From a virus (taxonomy: Duplodnaviria > Heunggongvirae > Uroviricota > Caudoviricetes): 19,895 bases of DNA. The DNA is taken from IMG/VR virus record IMGVR_UViG_3300045988_140849; one strand, written 5' to 3'. The notes under the pieces are model-generated. The model had not been told where the DNA came from, searched no databases, and saw only the letters and a list, made by a program, of their open reading frames with translations. Within the stretch, counting starts at the first letter, position 1. Each line of letters opens with the position of its first letter. The position numbers and the translations under genes were made by a program. Of this stretch, positions 2,000-19,895 are shown piece by piece.

Positions 2000-3013
2000 T
2001 TACTCTACTGTGGACACTGTGTGGACACTCTCAACCTCAGTACCACCTCTTAGCGGATTAAGAGAAATGGCGTCCTGAAGGTACTCTGGCGCAAAATGAG
2101 CGTAAACCATAGTTTGCTCAATCCGCGTGTGACCTAGTATCCGTTGTAGCGTGATAATACTTCCTCCATTAATCATGAAATGAGTGGCAAAGCTGTGCCT
2201 TAGTGCATGTGTGGCTTGCCCCATTGGCAAATCCGGTTTTATTGCTTTCATTGTTCGTCTGAAGCGAGGGTAATCAGCATCAGGGAATAAAAAACCTCGT
2301 TTGTTATCCGCGATCATTTTGGCAACAGCCTCTGAGATCGGGACGGTGCGTGGTTTGTTTGTTTTCGTTTTAACAAACGTGACGCGGTTATGGATGATAT
2401 TTTCTGCTTTCAAACGAGCTGCTTCTCCCCAACGTGCTCCAGTACTCAGGCAAAGAATCGCAATCTTTTTGTTGTCGCCGTCAAGAGCAGCAAGCAGTAA
2501 GGCAATTTCTTCCTGCGTGAGATAGCCTGTGTCTGGTTTTTCCTCCTTAAGCCTTTTTGTCCCTCTGATAGGGTGCTCACCAAAGAATAACTCCGCTTCA
2601 ATCAGGGCTGTAAACATGCCGCTAATACATGTTAAATCACGATTGATACTCGAAGGTTTAATACCCTGACTTCTTCGGGTGGCGCAGTACTGGCTGATAA
2701 GCGATTTCGTAATTTGAAATGCGCATGGGTCATTCGTTATTTTTGTGAAGATTTCAATTTTTCCAAGATTAGATTTCCCATGCTCTTCGTGTTTACCCTT
2801 TAAATCCCACCAGATCTGTGTCAGCTCCGACAGACGTCGCTTGTCTGTTGGTTTTGATAGCCATTCTTTATTGTGGTGGTTGTACAACGTGTATTTCTCG
2901 AAAGCGACAGCTTCGCTTTTCTTATCAAACTTCCTACGGATGCGTTTTCCATTACGTCCAGTAGGGCGGATGTCCACTTCATATCGACCATCATCGAGTT
3001 TTTTGATTGCCAT
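2000..3013 (-). CDS. int: P2-type tyrosine integrase (337 aa)
   Basis: Starts MAIKKLDDGRYEVDIRP; C-terminal catalytic signature HALRHSF...LGHTRIEQTMVYAHF (R, H-x-x-R, Y). Located next to the att core and upstream of C in the same orientation, as in P2. Confidence 0.95.
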   Translation of the reverse strand: MAIKKLDDGRYEVDIRPTGRNGKRIRRKFDKKSEAVAFEKYTLYNHHNKEWLSKPTDKRRLSELTQIWWDLKGKHEEHGKSNLGKIEIFTKITNDPCAFQITKSLISQYCATRRSQGIKPSSINRDLTCISGMFTALIEAELFFGEHPIRGTKRLKEEKPDTGYLTQEEIALLLAALDGDNKKIAILCLSTGARWGEAARLKAENIIHNRVTFVKTKTNKPRTVPISEAVAKMIADNKRGFLFPDADYPRFRRTMKAIKPDLPMGQATHALRHSFATHFMINGGSIITLQRILGHTRIEQTMVYAHFAPEYLQDAISLNPLRGGTEVESVHTVSTVE

Positions 3014-3128
3014 CAGAAAACCCTCCGAGTGGTGTGTTTTTTTGCGACTACTAATCGCTTTTTTCGTGGTGGCTGAAATTTAGCCACCAATAGTAGGCAC
3101 TTGTGATGAATATATTCACGATGAATTG

Positions 3129-3428
3129 TTAACCAGTCTTTTGACCGGAGTGGGGCGACGTTGTTTCGTTTTGCCCAAAGTGTGCGAGAGCGGGCGCAAT
3201 TTGCCCGGACTCAGGAGCGATCTGATTGGTCATGAACCATAAAGTGTATTTGGTGAATTGTGGGGTCTGCAGGATGTTCATCATGACATCTGTTGGAGGT
3301 GTTGAACGACCACTTTCATAGTAACTCAGCGTGCCATACGGAACCCCTGTTAAATCAGCAAGTTGTTGTCTGCTCAAATACTCTGATTTTCGCATTAAGA
3401 CTATCTTCTCGCTTATCGTGTTTGACAT
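3129..3428 (-). CDS. C: immunity repressor C (99 aa)
   Basis: Small helix-turn-helix protein (LSRQQLADLTGVPYGTLSYYESG) transcribed divergently from cox, in the P2 position; size fits P2 C. Confidence 0.9.
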   Translation of the reverse strand: MSNTISEKIVLMRKSEYLSRQQLADLTGVPYGTLSYYESGRSTPPTDVMMNILQTPQFTKYTLWFMTNQIAPESGQIAPALAHFGQNETTSPHSGQKTG

Positions 3429-3450
3429 GGTGTTTAGATCTCAATAGTAT
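3422..3450 (+). promoter_or_regulatory. early promoter Pe (candidate)
   Basis: -35 TTGACA (3422..3427), 17-bp spacer, -10 TAGTAT (3445..3450), facing cox and flanked by the operator repeats. Confidence 0.6.
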
Positions 3451-3467
3451 TTAGTTTAGATGTAGAT
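3433..3467. promoter_or_regulatory. C-repressor operator direct repeats
   Basis: TTTAGAT at 3433..3439 and 3455..3461, 22 bp centre to centre and flanking the Pe -10, plus a further TAGAT at 3463..3467. This fits the direct-repeat operator arrangement known for P2 C. Confidence 0.6.
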
Positions 3468-3499
3468 TGTTTAGTGCTTGGATGTGGGCACTAAAAGGC

Positions 3500-3528
3500 A
3501 TTATAAGACATTAAACGCAATTCATGAG
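3500..3528 (-). promoter_or_regulatory. repressor promoter Pc (candidate, face-to-face with Pe)
   Basis: Perfect TATAAT on the minus strand (plus coordinates 3500..3505). The -35 is poor. Predicted Pe and Pc transcripts would overlap by about 35 nt, as described for the P2 switch. Confidence 0.45.
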
Positions 3529-3542
3529 GGCTAGAGGACGAC

Positions 3543-3818
3543 ATGAGCAAGCAAGTAACACTCATGACTGATGCGATTCCTTATCAGGAGTTCGCAAAAC
3601 TAATAGGAAAATCGACAGGAGCGGTTCGTCGGATGATCGATAAAGGAAAGCTGCCTGTAATTGATATGACCGATCCACAATCAGCTTCAGGTCGTGCAGG
3701 TGAATATTGGGTATACCTTCCGGCATGGAATAACGGACTAAAACTGGCTTATGAAAGCCGCCCTAAAGAGATTCGTGACGGCTGGTTGATGTGGTTAGGT
3801 CTCGGTGAACCACGTTAA
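3543..3818 (+). CDS. cox: Cox (excision and switch control protein, 91 aa)
   Basis: First gene of the rightward early operon; small helix-turn-helix protein (QEFAKLIGKSTGAVRRMIDKGKLPV); size and position as in P2. Confidence 0.9.
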   Translation: MSKQVTLMTDAIPYQEFAKLIGKSTGAVRRMIDKGKLPVIDMTDPQSASGRAGEYWVYLPAWNNGLKLAYESRPKEIRDGWLMWLGLGEPR

Positions 3819-3828
3819 GGAGAACCGT

Positions 3829-3999
3829 ATGAATGAGCCTCGTTGTATTGCTCAGTTACTGCGTAACGAAAGCCCCAGGGCGATTGACTTCACCATCACC
3901 CACGGTAAGGGGCGTAAGGGAATCATTATCCGCACCAAAAAACAGAGTCCGTTAAAAAAGGCTCTGACCTTTCTGAAAAGCCGGAGGGTATGGAAATGA
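3829..3999 (+). CDS. small early protein in the P2 orf78 position
   Basis: ATG at 3829 preceded by AAGGAG (3817..3822). The ORF-track start at 3805 is a GTG without an RBS. The stop overlaps the B start. Confidence 0.6.
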   Translation: MNEPRCIAQLLRNESPRAIDFTITHGKGRKGIIIRTKKQSPLKKALTFLKSRRVWK

Positions 4000-4496
4000 C
4001 AGTGATGACGCTCAATCTCGTTGAAAAACAGCCAGCAGCTATGCGCCGGATAATTGGTAAGCATCTTGCCGTTCCTCGCTGGCAGGATACATGTGATTAT
4101 TATAATCAGATGATGGAGCGCGAACGGTTAACGGTTTGCTTTCATGCGCAGTTAAAACAGCGTCACGCAACGATGCGTTTTGAAGAAATGAACGACGTCG
4201 AACGTGAACGGCTGGTTTGTGCAATTGATGAACTGCGTGGGGCATTCTCAAAACGCCGTCAGGTTGGTGCAAGTGAGTATGCATATATTAGTTTTTTAAC
4301 AGTCAGTCAGCGTCGTACTTTATTTATGCATGCGGGATTGACTGAAAAAGAATTCAACCAGCCATACTGGCGAATTAATGAAGAGTCATGTTACTGGCGT
4401 GATGCTTTATTCCGTGCGTTACGTGAATTATTCAGTCTGTTTGAGTATGCGCCGACAATTCTGACATCGGTAAAACCAGAGCAATATCTGCATTAA
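3990..4496 (+). CDS. B: replication protein B (helicase loader-like)
   Basis: 168-aa ORF after cox and orf78, ATG at 3990 with GGAGGG upstream; position and size match P2 B. Confidence 0.85.
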   Translation: MEMTVMTLNLVEKQPAAMRRIIGKHLAVPRWQDTCDYYNQMMERERLTVCFHAQLKQRHATMRFEEMNDVERERLVCAIDELRGAFSKRRQVGASEYAYISFLTVSQRRTLFMHAGLTEKEFNQPYWRINEESCYWRDALFRALRELFSLFEYAPTILTSVKPEQYLH

Positions 4497-5310: not shown

Positions 5311-5582
5311 GTATTCGTATTGAAATTGGCGAACGTTATGTCGTTACCAGTGACAGCTTTCAGTTTATTCTCCACGAGAAAAAGAGAGCGGAAAGCGGTA
5401 AAAACGCCGGTCAGGAATGGCTGGCGGTGGTTGGTTATTATCCGAAATTAAGCCAGCTCGTTTCCGGCCTGATGCATCACGATATTCTGACCGGAAGCGC
5501 AAAGTCTTTTGCTGATTTAAACGCGCAGGTTGAGCAACTCAGCAGGCGTTGTTCAGAGGCTTTTGGCTCATATGGCCGTTAA
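5307..5582 (+). CDS. small early protein in the P2 orf83 position
   Basis: 91-aa ORF, start overlapping the orf82 stop; overlaps the start of A. Confidence 0.7.
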   Translation: MSIRIEIGERYVVTSDSFQFILHEKKRAESGKNAGQEWLAVVGYYPKLSQLVSGLMHHDILTGSAKSFADLNAQVEQLSRRCSEAFGSYGR

Positions 5583-7854
5583 AGCCTCCGGGCGTTTTGT
5601 CCCTCCTTCAGCATTTGCTGCAGGCACCGGTAAGGCGTTTACCGGTGCTTATGCATGGAACGCGCCACGCGAGGCCGTCGGGCGCGAAAGACCCCTTACA
5701 CGTGACGAGATGCGTCAGGTGCAAGGTGTTTTATCCACGATTAACCGCCTGCCTTACTTTTTGCGCTCGCTGTTTACTTCACGCTATGACTACATCCGGC
5801 GCAATAAAAGCCCGGTACACGGGTTTTATTTCCTCACATCCACTTTTCAGCGTCGTTTATGGCCGCGCATTGAGCGTGTGAATCAGCGCCATGAAATGAA
5901 CACCGACGCGTCGTTGCTGTTTCTGGCAGAGCGTGACCACTATGCGCGCCTGCCGGGAATGAATGACAAGGAGCTGAAAAAGTTTGCTGCCCGTATCTCA
6001 TCGCAGCTTTTCATGATGTATGAGGAACTCAGCGATGCCTGGGTGGATGCGCATGGCGAAAAAGAATCGCTGTTTACGGATGAGGCGCAGGCTCACCTCT
6101 ATGGTCATGTTGCTGGCGCTGCACGTGCTTTCAATATTTCCCCTCTCTACTGGAAAAAATACCGTAAAGGGCAGATGACCACGAGGCAGGCATATTCTGC
6201 CATTGCCCGTCTGTTTAACGATGAGTGGTGGACTCATCAGCTTAAAGGCCAGCGTATGCGCTGGCATGAAGCGTTACTGATAGCTGTCGGGGAGGTCAAT
6301 AAAGACCGTTCTCCTTATGCCAGTAAACACGCCATTCGTGATGTGCGTGCGCGCCGCCAGGCAAATCTGGAATTTCTTAAATCGTGTGACCTCGAAAACA
6401 GGGAAACCGGCGAGCGCATCGACCTTATCAGCAAGGTGATGGGCAGTATTTCTAATCCTGAAATTCGCCGGATGGAGCTGATGAACACCATCGCCGGTAT
6501 TGAGCGTTACGCCGCCGCAGAGGGTGATGTGGGGATGTTTATCACGCTGACCACGCCGTCAAAGTATCACCCGACACGTCAGGTCGGAAAAGGCGAAAAT
6601 AAAACCGTCCAGCTTAATCACGGCTGGAACGATGAGGCATTTAATCCAAAGGATGCGCAGCGTTATCTCTGCCGTATCTGGAGCCTGATGCGCACGGCAT
6701 TCAAGGATAATGATTTACAGGTCTACGGTTTGCGTGTCGTCGAACCACACCACGACGGAACGCCGCACTGGCATATGATGCTTTTTTGTAATCCACGCCA
6801 GCGTAACCAGATTATCGAAATCATGCGTCGCTATGCGCTCAAAGAGGATGGCGACGAAAGAGGAGCCGCGCGAAACCGTTTTCAGGCAAAACACCTTAAC
6901 CGGGGCGGTGCTGCGGGATATATCGCGAAATACATTTCAAAAAATATCGACGGCTATGCACTGGATGGTCAGCTCGATAACGATACCGGCAGACCGCTGA
7001 AAGATACTGCGGCGGCTGTTACCGCATGGGCGTCAACGTGGCGCATTCCGCAATTTAAAACGGTTGGCCTGCCGACAATGGGAGCTTACCGTGAGCTACG
7101 TAAATTGCCTCGCGGCGTCAGCATTGCTGATGAATTTGACGAACGCGTGGAGGCTGCACGCGCCGCCGCAGACAGTGGCGATTTTGCGCTGTATATCAGC
7201 GCGCAGGGCGGGGCAAATGTCCCGCGCGATTGTCAGACTGTCAGGGTCGCCCGTAGCCCGTCGGATGACGTTAACGAGTACGAGGAAGAAGTCGAGAGAG
7301 TGGTCGGCATTTACGCGCCGCATCTCGGCGCGCGTCATATTCATATCACCAGAACGACGGACTGGCGCATTGTGCCGAAAGTTCCGGTCGTGGAGCCTTT
7401 GACTTTAAAAAGCGGCATCGCCGCGCCTCGGAGTCCTGTCAATAACTGTGGAAAGCTCACTGGTGGTGATACTTCGTTACCGGCTCCCACGCCTTCTGAG
7501 CACGCCGCAGCAGTGCTTAATCTGGTTGATGACGGTGTTATCGAATGGAATGACCCGGAGGTCGTGAGGGCGCTCAGGGGCGCATTAAAACACGGCCTGA
7601 GAAGACCAAACCGTCAGCAAAGAAACGGAAGACCGTTAAAACCGCATGAAATAGCGCCATCGGCCAGACTGACCCGGTCGGAAAGAATGCAAATTACCCG
7701 TATCCGCGTTGACCTTGCTCAGAACGGTATCAGGCCGCAGCGATGGGAGCTTGAGGCGCTGGCGCGTGGCGCGATCGTAAATTACAACGGGAAAAAATTT
7801 ACGTATCCGGTCGCTGATGAGTGGAGTTGGTTTTATTGTTATTCAGAGCAATAA
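5572..7854 (+). CDS. A: rolling-circle replication initiator A (HUH endonuclease)
   Basis: About 760 aa from the ATG at 5572 (the ORF-track start at 5530 is TTG). HUH motif in TPHWHMMLF and tandem active-site tyrosines in GYIAKYISK; position as in P2. Confidence 0.9.
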   Translation: MAVKASGRFVPPSAFAAGTGKAFTGAYAWNAPREAVGRERPLTRDEMRQVQGVLSTINRLPYFLRSLFTSRYDYIRRNKSPVHGFYFLTSTFQRRLWPRIERVNQRHEMNTDASLLFLAERDHYARLPGMNDKELKKFAARISSQLFMMYEELSDAWVDAHGEKESLFTDEAQAHLYGHVAGAARAFNISPLYWKKYRKGQMTTRQAYSAIARLFNDEWWTHQLKGQRMRWHEALLIAVGEVNKDRSPYASKHAIRDVRARRQANLEFLKSCDLENRETGERIDLISKVMGSISNPEIRRMELMNTIAGIERYAAAEGDVGMFITLTTPSKYHPTRQVGKGENKTVQLNHGWNDEAFNPKDAQRYLCRIWSLMRTAFKDNDLQVYGLRVVEPHHDGTPHWHMMLFCNPRQRNQIIEIMRRYALKEDGDERGAARNRFQAKHLNRGGAAGYIAKYISKNIDGYALDGQLDNDTGRPLKDTAAAVTAWASTWRIPQFKTVGLPTMGAYRELRKLPRGVSIADEFDERVEAARAAADSGDFALYISAQGGANVPRDCQTVRVARSPSDDVNEYEEEVERVVGIYAPHLGARHIHITRTTDWRIVPKVPVVEPLTLKSGIAAPRSPVNNCGKLTGGDTSLPAPTPSEHAAAVLNLVDDGVIEWNDPEVVRALRGALKHGLRRPNRQQRNGRPLKPHEIAPSARLTRSERMQITRIRVDLAQNGIRPQRWELEALARGAIVNYNGKKFTYPVADEWSWFYCYSEQ

Positions 7855-7871
7855 ACATCTGATTTAATTTG

Positions 7872-7958
7872 TTGCATAATAGTAAAATTGCTGTTTATCT
7901 GCATGTGTTAACTATTGATAATTATGTTGCTAATAATAATGTGTGCAAATTTATACTG
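7872..7958 (+). promoter_or_regulatory. AT-rich upstream region of the cargo gene with several promoter-like hexamers
   Basis: TTGCAT (7872..7877), TTGATA (7915..7920), TTGCTA (7927..7932) and TATACT (7953..7958); none has ideal spacing, so the call is tentative. Confidence 0.3.
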
Positions 7959-7973
7959 AAAAAGGTGAAAACG

Positions 7974-9806
7974 ATGAATGATATCTTTGTTCTTACAAGG
8001 GAAGAGCTTGAAACACTAGATTATAGTGTTTTTATGCATATACCAGTTACATTTCATGCACATAAAATAAAAAAATATCTGGATGGGATTGCTGAGTCAT
8101 CAGAAAACCCCAAAGAGAAAAAATTAGCATCTCTTTTTGGTATGCTATATAGTTTCAATTTGCAAGTTGTTAACAACACTCCATCATTTGAACCCCAAAT
8201 GATTTGGGGTAATAAAAGATCAATATTGCCTGAAGATTTTGATGAGCAGGTGAATGACTGTCTTTTATATGTTTCTCAAAAAATAACCAATCCATTTTTG
8301 TTATCAAGAATATATGATGTTGTTTGGTGTAATAATCGGAAAAATAAAGACGTGGCAATTAAAGCAATTGATTCCTATGCTGAAATGCTAAATATAGCAA
8401 TTGAAAAGCTAATAATAAAAAACGAAAGCATAGATGAAAGTGATTTAAATTGCTTTATTTTTGCTCGTGATTATATTGCTAGGGCTTTGCACATTAATAA
8501 AATGGTCTACCCTAGAAAATCAGAAGGAAACATGGCGATTAAAAATGCCATTCATTCTCTTTATAGTATTCAAAATGAAAGATTAATCTTTGAAGGTTTC
8601 AATAATTTGACTTGGTTTATGGTGCGTGATTTTGATGGGTATAATCTGCAGTATGCGGAAAATGCTGAGAAGATGGCTGAGCAGCATAAAGATAAAAAAT
8701 ATTATGATGCTGTAAAATCACTTTATATGACAAGTGCAGTTATTTATGAAAAAAATGGTGAGTATGAACGTGCCAAGAGATGTAAACTGGCATCTGCAAA
8801 TATTACTATTAAAGTTGCAACAGAACGACCTGATAATATGGGTAAGATCTCTTGGTTAAGAACAGCTATCTCTGAATTAAGACAGTACGGTGGTGATAGC
8901 CAACAGATAGAAGATTTAAAGGAACAACTTGCTAATTTGAGAGAAGAAGTAAGGAGTGAATATGTCACTTTAAGCCATTCTATTGATATTAGTGACTTGG
9001 TTGCTGAAAGTGAAAAAAAACTGACGGGGCGTTCTTTGCCCGATATATTCAAAGTTTTAATGAGTGAAACACCGATTGAAAATATTGAAAGCATGAGGGA
9101 ACAAGTTTTAAGATTATCAGAAAAAAGTTTATTCTCTAGTTTTGTTGGAACAGAAATTAATGATGAGAGTGGGCGTAAGATATATACAATCCCGCCGTTG
9201 GATAATAAAAAAGATATGAGTGATGATGTTGTTATTGATCAATATCTAAGAAATTTCGAGATTACTCATAAGATTTTTGTAAACGGTGTCTTTGAACCTG
9301 CTCGCTATGTACTTTCTCAAGAACATGGCTTGACGTTGTCAACATTCGTTAAATTGGTTACAACTAGTCCAATTGTCAAGCCGGAGTTTAGGGAGATTTT
9401 TAATTTGGGCTTTTACAAATTATGGCAGGGAGATTACATCAGTGCAGCTTATCTTTTAATACCACAAATGGAAGGTATGGTTCGTTATTATTATGAGCTT
9501 AGTGGAAAGGATGCTACTAGATATTTGGATAAGGGATTAGAGGAGTCAACAAGTATTTCTCAGCTTCTAGATAAATGCAGAGATGATTTGGAAAGTATCT
9601 TTTCTAAAAATCTTGTTTTGACTATCGATGTTCTTTTTAACAGAAAGAGTGGGGCAACCTTAAGACATAAATTAGCACATGGTAATTTATATACTAATGC
9701 TTGTTACGATGAAACAACGACATATGCATGCATCCTGATTTTCTTTCTGTGTGCTTATCCTCTCCTACCATATTTTGATACTGTTTTTGAACAGGGCTCT
9801 GTTTGA
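7974..9806 (+). CDS. uncharacterized 610-aa cargo protein; candidate anti-phage/abortive-infection effector with C-terminal HEPN-like R-x4-H motif
   Basis: ATG at 7974 with AAAGGTGA 5 nt upstream; the ORF-track start at 7869 is TTG. About 25-35% G+C by eye versus about 50% for flanking A and Q. Occupies the tin/old slot. No Walker A motif. RHKLAH at residues 564..569. Confidence refers to the CDS being real; the function is a hypothesis. Confidence 0.85.
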   Translation: MNDIFVLTREELETLDYSVFMHIPVTFHAHKIKKYLDGIAESSENPKEKKLASLFGMLYSFNLQVVNNTPSFEPQMIWGNKRSILPEDFDEQVNDCLLYVSQKITNPFLLSRIYDVVWCNNRKNKDVAIKAIDSYAEMLNIAIEKLIIKNESIDESDLNCFIFARDYIARALHINKMVYPRKSEGNMAIKNAIHSLYSIQNERLIFEGFNNLTWFMVRDFDGYNLQYAENAEKMAEQHKDKKYYDAVKSLYMTSAVIYEKNGEYERAKRCKLASANITIKVATERPDNMGKISWLRTAISELRQYGGDSQQIEDLKEQLANLREEVRSEYVTLSHSIDISDLVAESEKKLTGRSLPDIFKVLMSETPIENIESMREQVLRLSEKSLFSSFVGTEINDESGRKIYTIPPLDNKKDMSDDVVIDQYLRNFEITHKIFVNGVFEPARYVLSQEHGLTLSTFVKLVTTSPIVKPEFREIFNLGFYKLWQGDYISAAYLLIPQMEGMVRYYYELSGKDATRYLDKGLEESTSISQLLDKCRDDLESIFSKNLVLTIDVLFNRKSGATLRHKLAHGNLYTNACYDETTTYACILIFFLCAYPLLPYFDTVFEQGSV

Positions 9807-9833
9807 TAACGTATACGTTGAGGCATAAAACCT

Positions 9834-9885
9834 ATGCATACTTAGCTGCATCAATTTGCACGAGGTATTTCAGTATGCATTTTCT
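9834..9885 (+). terminator. inverted repeat plus T-run downstream of the cargo gene (possible terminator)
   Basis: atgcatact (9834..9842) and agtatgcat (9872..9880) are a perfect 9-bp inverted repeat followed by tttct. The loop is long at 29 nt, so confidence is low. Confidence 0.3.
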
Positions 9886-9957
9886 GCGTAATAGTAGGGA
9901 TTGCTTGGTTTGGTAGTTGTAATTCAACTGCATTCAAACCGACCCATGAAGCGGGCG

Positions 9958-9976
9958 GGCGAGGCGGGGAAAGCAC
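9958..9976. other. P2-type cohesive end (cos) sequence
   Basis: ggcgaggcggggaaagcac matches the 19-nt P2 cos sequence as recalled; it lies between the cargo locus and Q, as in P2. Confidence 0.8.
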
Positions 9977-10117
9977 TGCGCGCTGGCGGTGGTGCTGATT
10001 TTATTTTTTAGCGTCTCAGCGCGTCGTGATGGCGTTTAGATTGTGCGCCGGGGCGTTGGTGTGTCTGCGGGGTGTTTTGTGCGGTGGTGAGCGTGTGAGG
10101 GCGTGATGACGGGGTGT

Positions 10118-10139
10118 AAAAAAGCCGCCCGCAGGCGGC
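10118..10139 (-). terminator. intrinsic terminator just after Q
   Basis: On the minus strand, gccgcc-tgcg-ggcggc hairpin (plus 10124..10139) followed by TTTTTT (plus 10118..10123), starting 5 nt after the Q stop. Confidence 0.8.
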
Positions 10140-10144
10140 GATGT

Positions 10145-11179
10145 TCAGCCGTTGTCAGTGTCCAGTGAGTAGTTTTTAAAGCGGATGACCTCCTGACCGA
10201 GCCAGCCGTTTATCTCACGGATCCTGTCCTGTAACGGGATAAGCTCATTGCGGACAAAGACCTTTGCCACTTTCTCAATATCACCCAGCGACCCGACGTT
10301 CTCCGGCTTGCCGCCCATCAACTGAAAGGGGATGCGGTGCGCGTCCAGCAGGTCTGCGGCACTGGCTTTTTTGATATTAAAAAAATCGTCCTTCGTCGCC
10401 ACTTCACTGAGCGGGATAATTTTAATGCCGTCGGCTTTTCCCTGTGGGGCATAGAGAAACAGGTTTTTAAAGTTGTTGCGGCCTTTCGACTTCACCATGT
10501 TTTCGCGAAGCATTTCGATATCGTTGCGATCCTGCACGGCATCAGTGACGTACATGATGTATCCGGCATGTGCGCCGTTTTCGTAATACTTGCGGCGGAA
10601 CAGCGTGGCCGACTCATTCAGCCAGGCAGAGTTAAGGGCGCTGAGATATTCCGGCAGGCCGTACAGCTCCTGATTAATATCGGGCTCCAGCAGGTGAAAC
10701 ACGGAACCGGGCGCGAAGGCTGTCGGCTCGTTGAAGGACGGCACCCACCAGTAAACATCCTCCTCCACGCCACGGCGGGTATATTTTGCCGGTGAGGTTT
10801 CCAGTCTGATGACCTTACCGGTGGTGCTGTAACGCTTTTCCAGAAACGCATTACCGAACACCAGAAAATCCAGCACAAAGCGGCTGAAATCCTGCTGGGA
10901 AAGCCACGGGTGCGGGATAAACGTTGAAGCCAGAATATTACGTTTGACGTAAATCGGTGAGCTGTGATGCACGGCAGCACGCAGACTTTTTGCCAGACCG
11001 GTAAAGCTGACCGGTGGCTCATACCATCTGCCGTTACTGATGCATTCGACGTAATCCAGAATGTCACGGCGGTCGAGTACCGGCACTGGCTCACCAAAGG
11101 TGAATGCCTCCATTTTCGGGGCGCTGGCGGTCATTTTTTTTGCCGCAGGTTGCGGTGTTTTCCCTTTTTTCTTGCTCAT
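10145..11179 (-). CDS. Q: portal protein Q (344 aa)
   Basis: Size, orientation and position next to cos match P2 Q; start overlaps the P stop (ATGA). Confidence 0.9.
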   Translation of the reverse strand: MSKKKGKTPQPAAKKMTASAPKMEAFTFGEPVPVLDRRDILDYVECISNGRWYEPPVSFTGLAKSLRAAVHHSSPIYVKRNILASTFIPHPWLSQQDFSRFVLDFLVFGNAFLEKRYSTTGKVIRLETSPAKYTRRGVEEDVYWWVPSFNEPTAFAPGSVFHLLEPDINQELYGLPEYLSALNSAWLNESATLFRRKYYENGAHAGYIMYVTDAVQDRNDIEMLRENMVKSKGRNNFKNLFLYAPQGKADGIKIIPLSEVATKDDFFNIKKASAADLLDAHRIPFQLMGGKPENVGSLGDIEKVAKVFVRNELIPLQDRIREINGWLGQEVIRFKNYSLDTDNG

Positions 11180-19396: not shown

Positions 19397-19895
19397 TTAT
19401 GAGTGATTTTTATTTGATGCTTTGTATTCTACAACCTTCTTATTGGCGTAAAGGAATTTTGTATATGACAGGAATATAACCAGACCTGAAATGAAATAGA
19501 TGAGGGATATTATTAATAATGCTTTTTTTTGGCTGTTATTATCTTTAATTTCCTGACTTAACCATTCCGAGTCCTCCTCGTTTAGCTGTAAGAGCTTATT
19601 GCAGGCGATCTCAGGAAGTGTGTCTTTTATAAATATGTTTCGTAGCCTCTTGCAATCGGCAAGGCTATAAGTTTTATTGAATTCAACTGTTTTATTGTTG
19701 AAGGATAAAAGAACTTTGTCACTATAAACATAGTACATCATATTTTTATATGGTATGCCTATGGCATCTCTTACTATAGCGGATTGTTTGTTGTGTATAT
19801 AACATGCGAAGAGAATATAAATAATGCTGGACAGAATTACAATTATTGTTTTAATTATGTGTGGTGGTTTTGTTATGTCACCCCAGAAGCGAGTA
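19397..19895 (-). CDS. AT-rich membrane protein at the P2 orf30 position, 5-prime partial (runs off the window)
   Basis: The 114-codon ORF from the ATG at 19741 has a transmembrane segment (ALLIISLIYFISGLVIFLSY). The same frame stays open for 51 more codons to the window edge and encodes another hydrophobic stretch (IIKTIIVILSSIIYILFACYI), so the true start may lie beyond 19895. Confidence 0.5.
   Translation of the reverse strand, partial: TRFWGDITKPPHIIKTIIVILSSIIYILFACYIHNKQSAIVRDAIGIPYKNMMYYVYSDKVLLSFNNKTVEFNKTYSLADCKRLRNIFIKDTLPEIACNKLLQLNEEDSEWLSQEIKDNNSQKKALLIISLIYFISGLVIFLSYTKFLYANKKVVEYKASNKNHS

Follow-up and report, generated by a model that had tools for sequence, protein, structure and literature searches.

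We analyzed a 19,895-nt stretch of viral DNA (hereafter the window; Caudoviricetes, IMG/VR record IMGVR_UViG_3300045988_140849) that carries a P2-like prophage. Between the prophage replication gene A (gpA) and its cos site lies an AT-rich island (7855–9957) with a single gene, and this island is horizontally acquired cargo in the gpA–cos hotspot. The gene encodes a 610-aa protein made up of a DUF7380 domain, a TPR-like solenoid, a linker and a HEPN domain, in that order. It is very probably a HEPN-fold protein whose catalytic motif is under selection. We lean slightly towards an anti-phage role in nature, and by analogy with characterized HEPN systems the protein may well be a standalone, trigger-activated HEPN RNase that acts by abortive infection or exclusion. 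Literature and databases already cover the gene, where it sits in the hotspot and its assignment to HEPN.

The island is set apart by its base composition. Computed over the exact span 7855–9957, its G+C content is 33.3%, compared with 53.6% for gpA (55.3% at third codon positions, GC3) and 55.9% for genes Q and P together. In 400-nt windows, G+C is 0.54–0.58 over 7001–7800, falls to 0.30–0.35 over 7801–9800 and returns to 0.52–0.55 past 9801. An initial annotation of the window had estimated this shift by eye, and the computed values bear out its AT-rich slot of about 2.1 kb. The left edge of the island is the gpA stop codon at 7854; gene A itself (5572–7854, plus strand) belongs to the phage backbone and is annotated as a replication endonuclease in NZ_CP098197. 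On the right, the island ends at the 19-nt sequence GGCGAGGCGGGGAAAGCAC (9958–9976, plus strand), an exact match with 0 expected by chance, which we take to be the P2 cohesive end (cos). The cos-adjacent clones of Rousset et al. (2022; PMC9122126), from both P4 and P2 hotspots, contain this 19-mer too. The next backbone gene on the right is portal gene Q (10145–11179, minus strand).

Gene order in the prophage is P2-like, with int, cox, B and A to the left of the island and cos, Q, P, O, N and M to the right. The prophage is inserted beside yegR and the gat operon, and an identical locus is found in NZ_CP098197. When the window was compared with phage genomes by megablast, the flanks were 91–97% conserved in P2, L-413C, pro483 and peduoviruses of Yersinia and Salmonella. 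Homology to P2-like phages ends at about 7855 and restarts at about 9916–9925, within the spacer downstream of the cargo gene (9807–9957). Other P2-like phages hold different cargo in the same slot (Fic/VbhT, DUF3850 or DUF4238), and P2 itself has orf91/tin/old there. The cargo thus lies between gpA and gpQ, by cos, and varies among otherwise conserved genomes, which is what defines the hotspot. Flank homology, the 19-mer and the loci of Rousset et al. all agree with the earlier assignment of this slot to the P2 tin/old hotspot, and the comparison across P2-like phages that had been proposed alongside it is the one that revealed the alternative cargo.

Only one open reading frame (ORF) in the island is credible. 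It has the 610 codons first called and runs from an ATG at 7974 to a stop at 9806 on the plus strand (G+C 33.1%, GC3 25.4%). All other ORFs in the island have at most 116 codons and are antisense or overlapping. At the base composition of the island, the probability of 610 consecutive sense codons is about 1e-23. A Shine–Dalgarno sequence, AAGGTG (7962–7967), precedes the ATG with 6-nt spacing, and RefSeq, where the protein is WP_076797585, annotates the same start; the mechanical ORF list begins the same frame at an upstream TTG (7869). The spacer upstream of the gene (7855–7973, 119 nt, plus strand) has 26.1% G+C, in keeping with the AT-rich upstream region that had been described. Two weak sigma-70-like sites lie upstream of the gene (7852–7880 and 7908–7937). 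These are consensus matches only, and promoter-like sites in the region are not above shuffle expectation (14 found versus 9.7 +/- 3.7 expected).

The protein begins with DUF7380 (Pfam PF24098; aa 4–184, 7983–8525), which scores 134.6 bits against a cutoff of 27 and is matched by 33 of 33 diverse relatives. A helical-repeat middle of TPR/SNAP-like type occupies roughly aa 185–330 (8526–8963); the solenoid starts at about aa 107, within DUF7380. The linker (aa 331–427, 8964–9254) is a low-confidence region of the structural model and includes a beta-hairpin at aa 393–406. The C-terminal HEPN domain (aa 428–604, 9255–9785) is of the DUF4209 type, and the DUF4209 profile is matched by 30 of the 33 relatives at E<=0.01 (best 9.4e-13). 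All of these segments are coded on the plus strand.

At nearly full length, the protein falls into the PADLOC group PDC-S39 (E=1.9e-84, aa 40–598 against profile positions 44–583 of 595; E=9.7e-84 with a second profile). No other PADLOC model matches at E<=1. The protein also belongs to PHROG 5183, a family of unknown function, and gave no match in an NCBIfam search or, at E<=1e-3, in BFVD. The Pfam and PADLOC searches recommended in the initial annotation therefore return DUF7380 and PDC-S39. That annotation had also named a match to a phage structural or housekeeping protein as grounds for abandoning a defense role, and none was found in Pfam, PADLOC, NCBIfam, PHROG or BFVD.

HEPN RNases, whose metal-independent activity comes from a composite active site in a dimer, are recognized by an Rx4-6H motif, usually with a polar residue (N, H or D) after the arginine. 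Read from the sequence, the cargo protein has R564-HKLA-H569 (codons at 9663–9680, plus strand), and the pattern R[HN]xxAHG occurs within the last 110 residues of 153 of 153 full-length relatives. Across 134 diverse relatives (median identity to the query 24%), conservation reaches 100% at E500, R564 and H569 and 99% at R504; E500 and R504 also lie in the HEPN domain. This domain is the most conserved part of the protein, with a mean identity to the query of 0.32 versus 0.12–0.23 for the sensor-like N-terminal part. The least conserved stretches are the N-terminal 60 residues and aa 141–260. Two further sets of residues are conserved in both the 134 and the 33 relatives: R82, D88, R112, D115, W118, A131, Y135 and R170 in DUF7380, and the near-invariant D397 and G400 in the hairpin.

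The motif sits in an all-alpha helical bundle, the fold expected of HEPN domains. Structural matches have modest scores and form a coherent list that includes the HEPN protein AF0298 (6.0), the HEPN domain of AbiA (5.6) and the HEPN toxins HEPN/MNT, RnlA/LsoA and SO_3166. Taken together with the motif and with the assignment in Pfam and the literature, these matches lead us to regard the HEPN fold as established. Sequence searches of the PDB, whether started from the single protein or from a profile, gave no related solved structure, just designed helical repeats at marginal E-values.

The last helix of the protein (aa 583–605, nt ~9720–9788; TYACILIFFLCAYPLLPYF) is hydrophobic, with a Kyte-Doolittle value of 1.78 over 19 aa, and scores as transmembrane. 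Some of its residues (Y584 and a W at position 587) are conserved across the family. Eukaryotic C6orf70 relatives are described with a transmembrane region, which raises the question of membrane association for the cargo protein. AlphaFold2 builds aa 583–605 as a long C-terminal helix of the domain (predicted local distance difference test score 86–90, domain model), and because of this predicted placement a membrane anchor is not favored.

In an exhaustive HMMER search over 1.84 billion cluster representatives (50%-identity clusters), 3,354 relatives passed E<=1e-3, and 630 passed E<=1e-30. Almost every one of the 150 best-scoring sequences has a length of 600–650 aa and aligns end to end. 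A word-indexed search, started from the single protein and repeated with a profile, recovered just 21 close enterobacterial clusters and no distant relatives. Relatives at 48–67% identity are confined to Enterobacteriaceae. The two examined, one in Klebsiella variicola (65%) and one in Kosakonia cowanii (54%), occupy the same place in P2-/186-like prophages, with Phage_GPA on one side and the portal gene on the other. A more distant homologue in Enterobacter sp. ECC-219 (32% identity; locus L003, 7995–9827), also a PDC-S39 member, is directly 3' of a Phage_GPA gene. It resembles system #55 in Table S5B of Rousset et al., a second ‘DUF4209’ system found at 76 loci in the same P2 slot in E. coli. 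Since these homologues and system #55 occupy or adjoin the slot, the pattern suggests that one protein family has been recruited to the P2 gpA–cos hotspot repeatedly and independently.

Across the wider family, we retrieved 80 loci from Alpha- and Gammaproteobacteria, Cyanobacteria, Chloroflexota, Planctomycetota, Verrucomicrobiota and others. In 65 loci with a full-length homologue, comparing three genes per side by all-against-all BLAST, no neighbor family recurred in more than three loci, and neighbor sizes and orientations varied freely. The cargo gene appears to work alone, because this comparison of gene neighborhoods reveals no recurrent partner. About 12 of 88 immediate neighbors match defense models (an approximate count without a genome-background control). 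These include type I, IIG and III restriction-modification (RM) genes, IetS, HmaC, PbeA, a phospholipase effector, mad3, Csx1, capP and PDC-S31; mobile-element genes (relaxase, rve, HTH/M78) are found next to homologues as well. In Chlorogloea sp. CCALA 695 (locus L069, 670–12099), the homologue is embedded in an Hma system: HmaB (methylase) and HmaC (AAA+ ATPase) precede it and an SNF2/PLD helicase follows, all on one strand. In a Bdellovibrionales metagenome-assembled genome, 43 nt separate the homologue from a type IIG RM gene upstream of it. Such arrangements are the same ‘guilt-by-embedding’ signal that yielded the PDC systems of PADLOC.

The island is present at >=99% identity over >=80% of its length in 55 of 5,426 complete E. 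coli genomes (1.0%), always on the chromosome. One genome has two copies (56 in total), presumably in two P2-like prophages. Among phage records, just one, vB_EcoM-569R9, has this cargo. Several E. coli records, among them NZ_CP091703, NZ_CP060928, NZ_CP041628 and NZ_CP071073, have the island at 2284–4386 and begin exactly at the start codon of the prophage gpA; these assemblies were apparently rotated to the phage ‘replication’ gene rather than to dnaA.

The case for an immune role is made by the fit to the hotspot, the HEPN motif, the sensor-like N-terminal part, the standalone habit and the defense neighborhoods of relatives. Our working model follows the precedent of HepS, a solo HEPN protein of a prophage that is inactive at rest and activated by phage protein. 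The lysogen would produce the cargo protein in an inactive, auto-inhibited form. A cue from the phage, probably a protein that binds to the solenoid/DUF7380 part, would activate it, and HEPN domains would then dimerize and build a composite Rx4H active site between them. By cutting cellular RNA (tRNA, mRNA or rRNA), the activated protein would halt translation and abort infection by the competing phage.

This gene has a published history. Rousset et al. (2022; PMC9122126) analyzed 18,150 gpA–gpQ loci in E. coli. Their Table S5A lists WP_076797585 as a single-gene locus, and their Table S5B includes it as system #13, ‘DUF4209’, with 193 loci and a protein that begins MNDIFVLTREELETLDYSVFMHIPV. 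They also cloned it: plasmid pFR103, ‘Putative HEPN’ (P2, one gene, from E. coli S88), is given in Table S2B, ‘additional tested systems’. According to their methods, Table S2A holds the validated systems and Table S2B those additionally tested. Eight further P2 systems were tested and three protected (DUF4238, a three-gene system and DprA+PRTase). The panel comprised lambda, T4, P1, 186cIts, CLB_P2, LF82_P8, AL505_P2 and T7, with MG1655 as host, pSC101 as vector and the island under its native promoter (PMC9122126). In the part of the insert that is shown, pFR103 aligns to window positions 7771–8173, and its reverse primer falls at 10145–10164; from the alignment and the primer position, the clone takes in the entire island along with the native upstream region and cos (equivalent to 7771–10164).

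The S88 allele, the only one put to an experimental test, differs slightly from that of the window. The two are 99% identical. Upstream of the gene, S88 has a G-to-A substitution at 7900 and a 3-bp deletion at 7931–7933 within the putative promoter. The deletion removes one TAA unit of the run GCTAATAATAATG, itself overlapping a promoter-like -10 region. At least four protein changes (E44G, I153M, E284D and S364R) occur in the first 399 aa, the portion shown. The 2,100-nt version of the island (99.6%) is found in about a dozen complete genomes.

In the literature searched, from which some later supplementary tables fell outside the search, we found no validation of PDC-S39 or DUF4209. PDC-S39 is named in three papers, none of which validates it, and the two of them that were listed give it just as a PADLOC match. 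Among the main texts searched, DUF4209 is named in one (Anantharaman et al., 2013) and DUF7380 in none, and the gene is absent from the supplements of Vassallo 2022. The initial annotation had singled out the island as the best candidate in the window for an uncharacterized defense system. Its interpretation is partly supported: a defense role is credible in light of PDC-S39 and HEPN, but the novelty is lost because the gene is already system #13 of Rousset et al. The cloning and phage-panel experiment it called for has in essence been run by the same authors. It had been prepared to give up the idea given no effect on any phage together with no toxicity on overexpression, and the published outcome, from a small panel, goes half that way.

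Several points weigh against an immune RNase. The main one is that pFR103 gave no validated protection against the eight coliphages, as seen from its place in Table S2B rather than among the validated systems. This result comes from a small panel, a K-12 host and a slightly different allele, and the part of the text of PMC9122126 that was available reports no expression check. The 145 PADLOC PDC systems, PDC-S39 among them, are untested candidates by definition (Payne et al., 2024; 10.1101/2024.01.29.577857). The query itself scores 20.0 bits for DUF4209 (PF13910; aa 524–590, E=7.4e-4), under the threshold of 22.3. The association of distant relatives with defense loci is only semi-quantitative. 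One account that would reconcile the negative test with defense is a narrow-spectrum immune sensor, in which the DUF7380/TPR-like module recognizes a phage protein missing from the eight-phage panel and unleashes the HEPN RNase; we hold this specific version tentatively, as a possibility short of an even chance.

A different reading accepts an active HEPN RNase and places its benefit outside defense against the usual virulent coliphages. The protein could play a part when temperate elements compete (other P2-like phages, lambdoid prophages or P4-like satellites) or control RNA of its own phage or of the host, for example in a stress- or induction-linked growth arrest. The panel on which no protection was validated had one P2-like phage (186cIts) and one lambdoid phage, and systems from the P2 hotspot can act on P2 relatives, as AC1 does (PMC9122126). 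The cargo gene also follows gpA after 119 bp on the same strand, an interval in which no terminator is predicted, so it may be expressed with the early operon as well. Yet distant relatives occur in non-phage contexts, in or beside RM and Hma systems, which is a better fit to general anti-phage immunity than to a role specific to P2, and there is no evidence of an RNA-regulatory partner. We regard this reading as rather unlikely.

It is quite improbable that the HEPN domain is not a nuclease at all, serving as a nucleotide- or ligand-binding domain or a scaffold in a non-immune role, or that the gene is a decaying passenger. Some HEPN domains are indeed non-catalytic, and the published functional test was negative. 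Against this, R564, H569, E500 and R504 are kept in relatives at ~24% identity, the full-length architecture is retained in ~150 representatives, and the island is nearly unchanged across the 55 E. coli genomes. The invariant catalytic residues and the retained architecture imply strong purifying selection on the catalytic signature. We consider very unlikely, and reject, the idea that the protein is the toxin of a toxin–antitoxin or addiction module that stabilizes the prophage, with a nearby small protein or RNA as antitoxin: many HEPN proteins are such toxins, including those among the structural matches, but the island has a single credible ORF, no MNT-like or other conserved neighbor recurs in the 65 loci, ORF, Rfam and repeat searches of the island found no antitoxin ORF, Rfam match, tandem repeats or repeat array to hint at a type III RNA antitoxin, and maintenance of the cloned island in MG1655 indicates no strong unchecked toxicity.

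Should the cargo protein prove to be an active immune RNase, this would supply a function for DUF7380, DUF4209 and PDC-S39, add a sensor–HEPN design to the single-protein abortive-infection systems, and account for the presence of the gene in ~1% of E. coli genomes and of P2-like hotspots. If it is a narrow-spectrum sensor, it would be the first tractable member of a functionally unassigned family of 3,354 cluster representatives and would connect a prophage defense RNase to the conserved eukaryotic C6orf70/ERMARD protein (PMC3710099). The re-examination itself prevents a rediscovery, shows that the negative test concerned a slightly different allele and a narrow panel, and names the catalytic residues R564, H569, E500 and R504 together with conserved N-terminal residues. 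What remains of value in any case is a large conserved family with an easy experimental handle.

Two other AT-rich stretches were seen in the window. The first (1000–1800, G+C 0.35–0.41) is outside the prophage, in the host yegR region at the integrase end, where the attachment site is expected. The second (19397–19895, minus strand; G+C 0.33–0.40 in the last 400-nt windows) is a sharply AT-rich cargo gene cut by the end of the window. Its full version (locus L001, 23543–24328, minus strand) encodes a 261-aa hypothetical protein with no Pfam match above threshold and no PADLOC match. It sits between a virion-morphogenesis gene (S-like) and baseplate gene V, in what is presumably the P2 orf30 slot.

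Among known systems, the closest is system #13/pFR103 of Rousset et al., which is the same gene (protein start MNDIFVLTREELETLDY), alone in the same gpA–cos slot (PMC9122126). PDC-S39 (Payne et al., 2024; 10.1101/2024.01.29.577857) is a near full-length match and, like the cargo gene, a single-gene system; PDC systems were chosen for being embedded in BREX, DISARM and type I RM loci (‘guilt-by-embedding’), whereas the window copy is in a prophage hotspot. The cargo protein belongs to no validated PADLOC family. DUF4209 has been placed in the HEPN superfamily as the C6orf70 family, which occurs in TPR fusions and in RM-related operons and is more frequent in bacteria than in eukaryotes; for eukaryotic C6orf70/ERMARD members, a transmembrane region and localization to the endoplasmic reticulum are predicted (Anantharaman et al., 2013; PMC3710099). 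The cargo family shares the C-terminal HEPN domain with Rx4H, the TPR-like fusion and the RM context. The query itself scores just under the Pfam cutoff, and its membership holds at the level of the family.

HepS of the Gifsy-1 prophage is an auto-inhibited solo HEPN anticodon nuclease that is switched on by phage tail-tip proteins, cuts tRNA anticodon loops and causes abortive infection (Sargen et al., 2026; PMC13043305). Both it and the cargo protein are prophage-encoded single HEPN proteins with no partner gene; the HepS family is defined as standalone proteins of <250 aa homologous to STM14_3211, and the cargo protein falls outside it. HEPN-MNT and other HEPN toxin–antitoxin systems have an adjacent antitoxin gene (MNT or Dmd/RnlB-like) or antitoxin RNA repeats, which the cargo gene lacks. 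A P4 ‘HEPN-TPR’ protein (pFR83) was considered as a relative and rejected, as it is unrelated in sequence. The single-protein systems HEC-08 (DUF3644), DS-11 (CBS-HEPN), PD-T7-4/DS-38 (HEPN-Zn-finger), ApeA and AbiV lose defense when the histidine of Rx4-6H or other HEPN catalytic residues are mutated. The partner domains of the cargo protein, DUF7380 and the TPR-like part, differ from theirs, and the likeness lies in the design: a HEPN effector joined to a variable sensor or regulatory domain.

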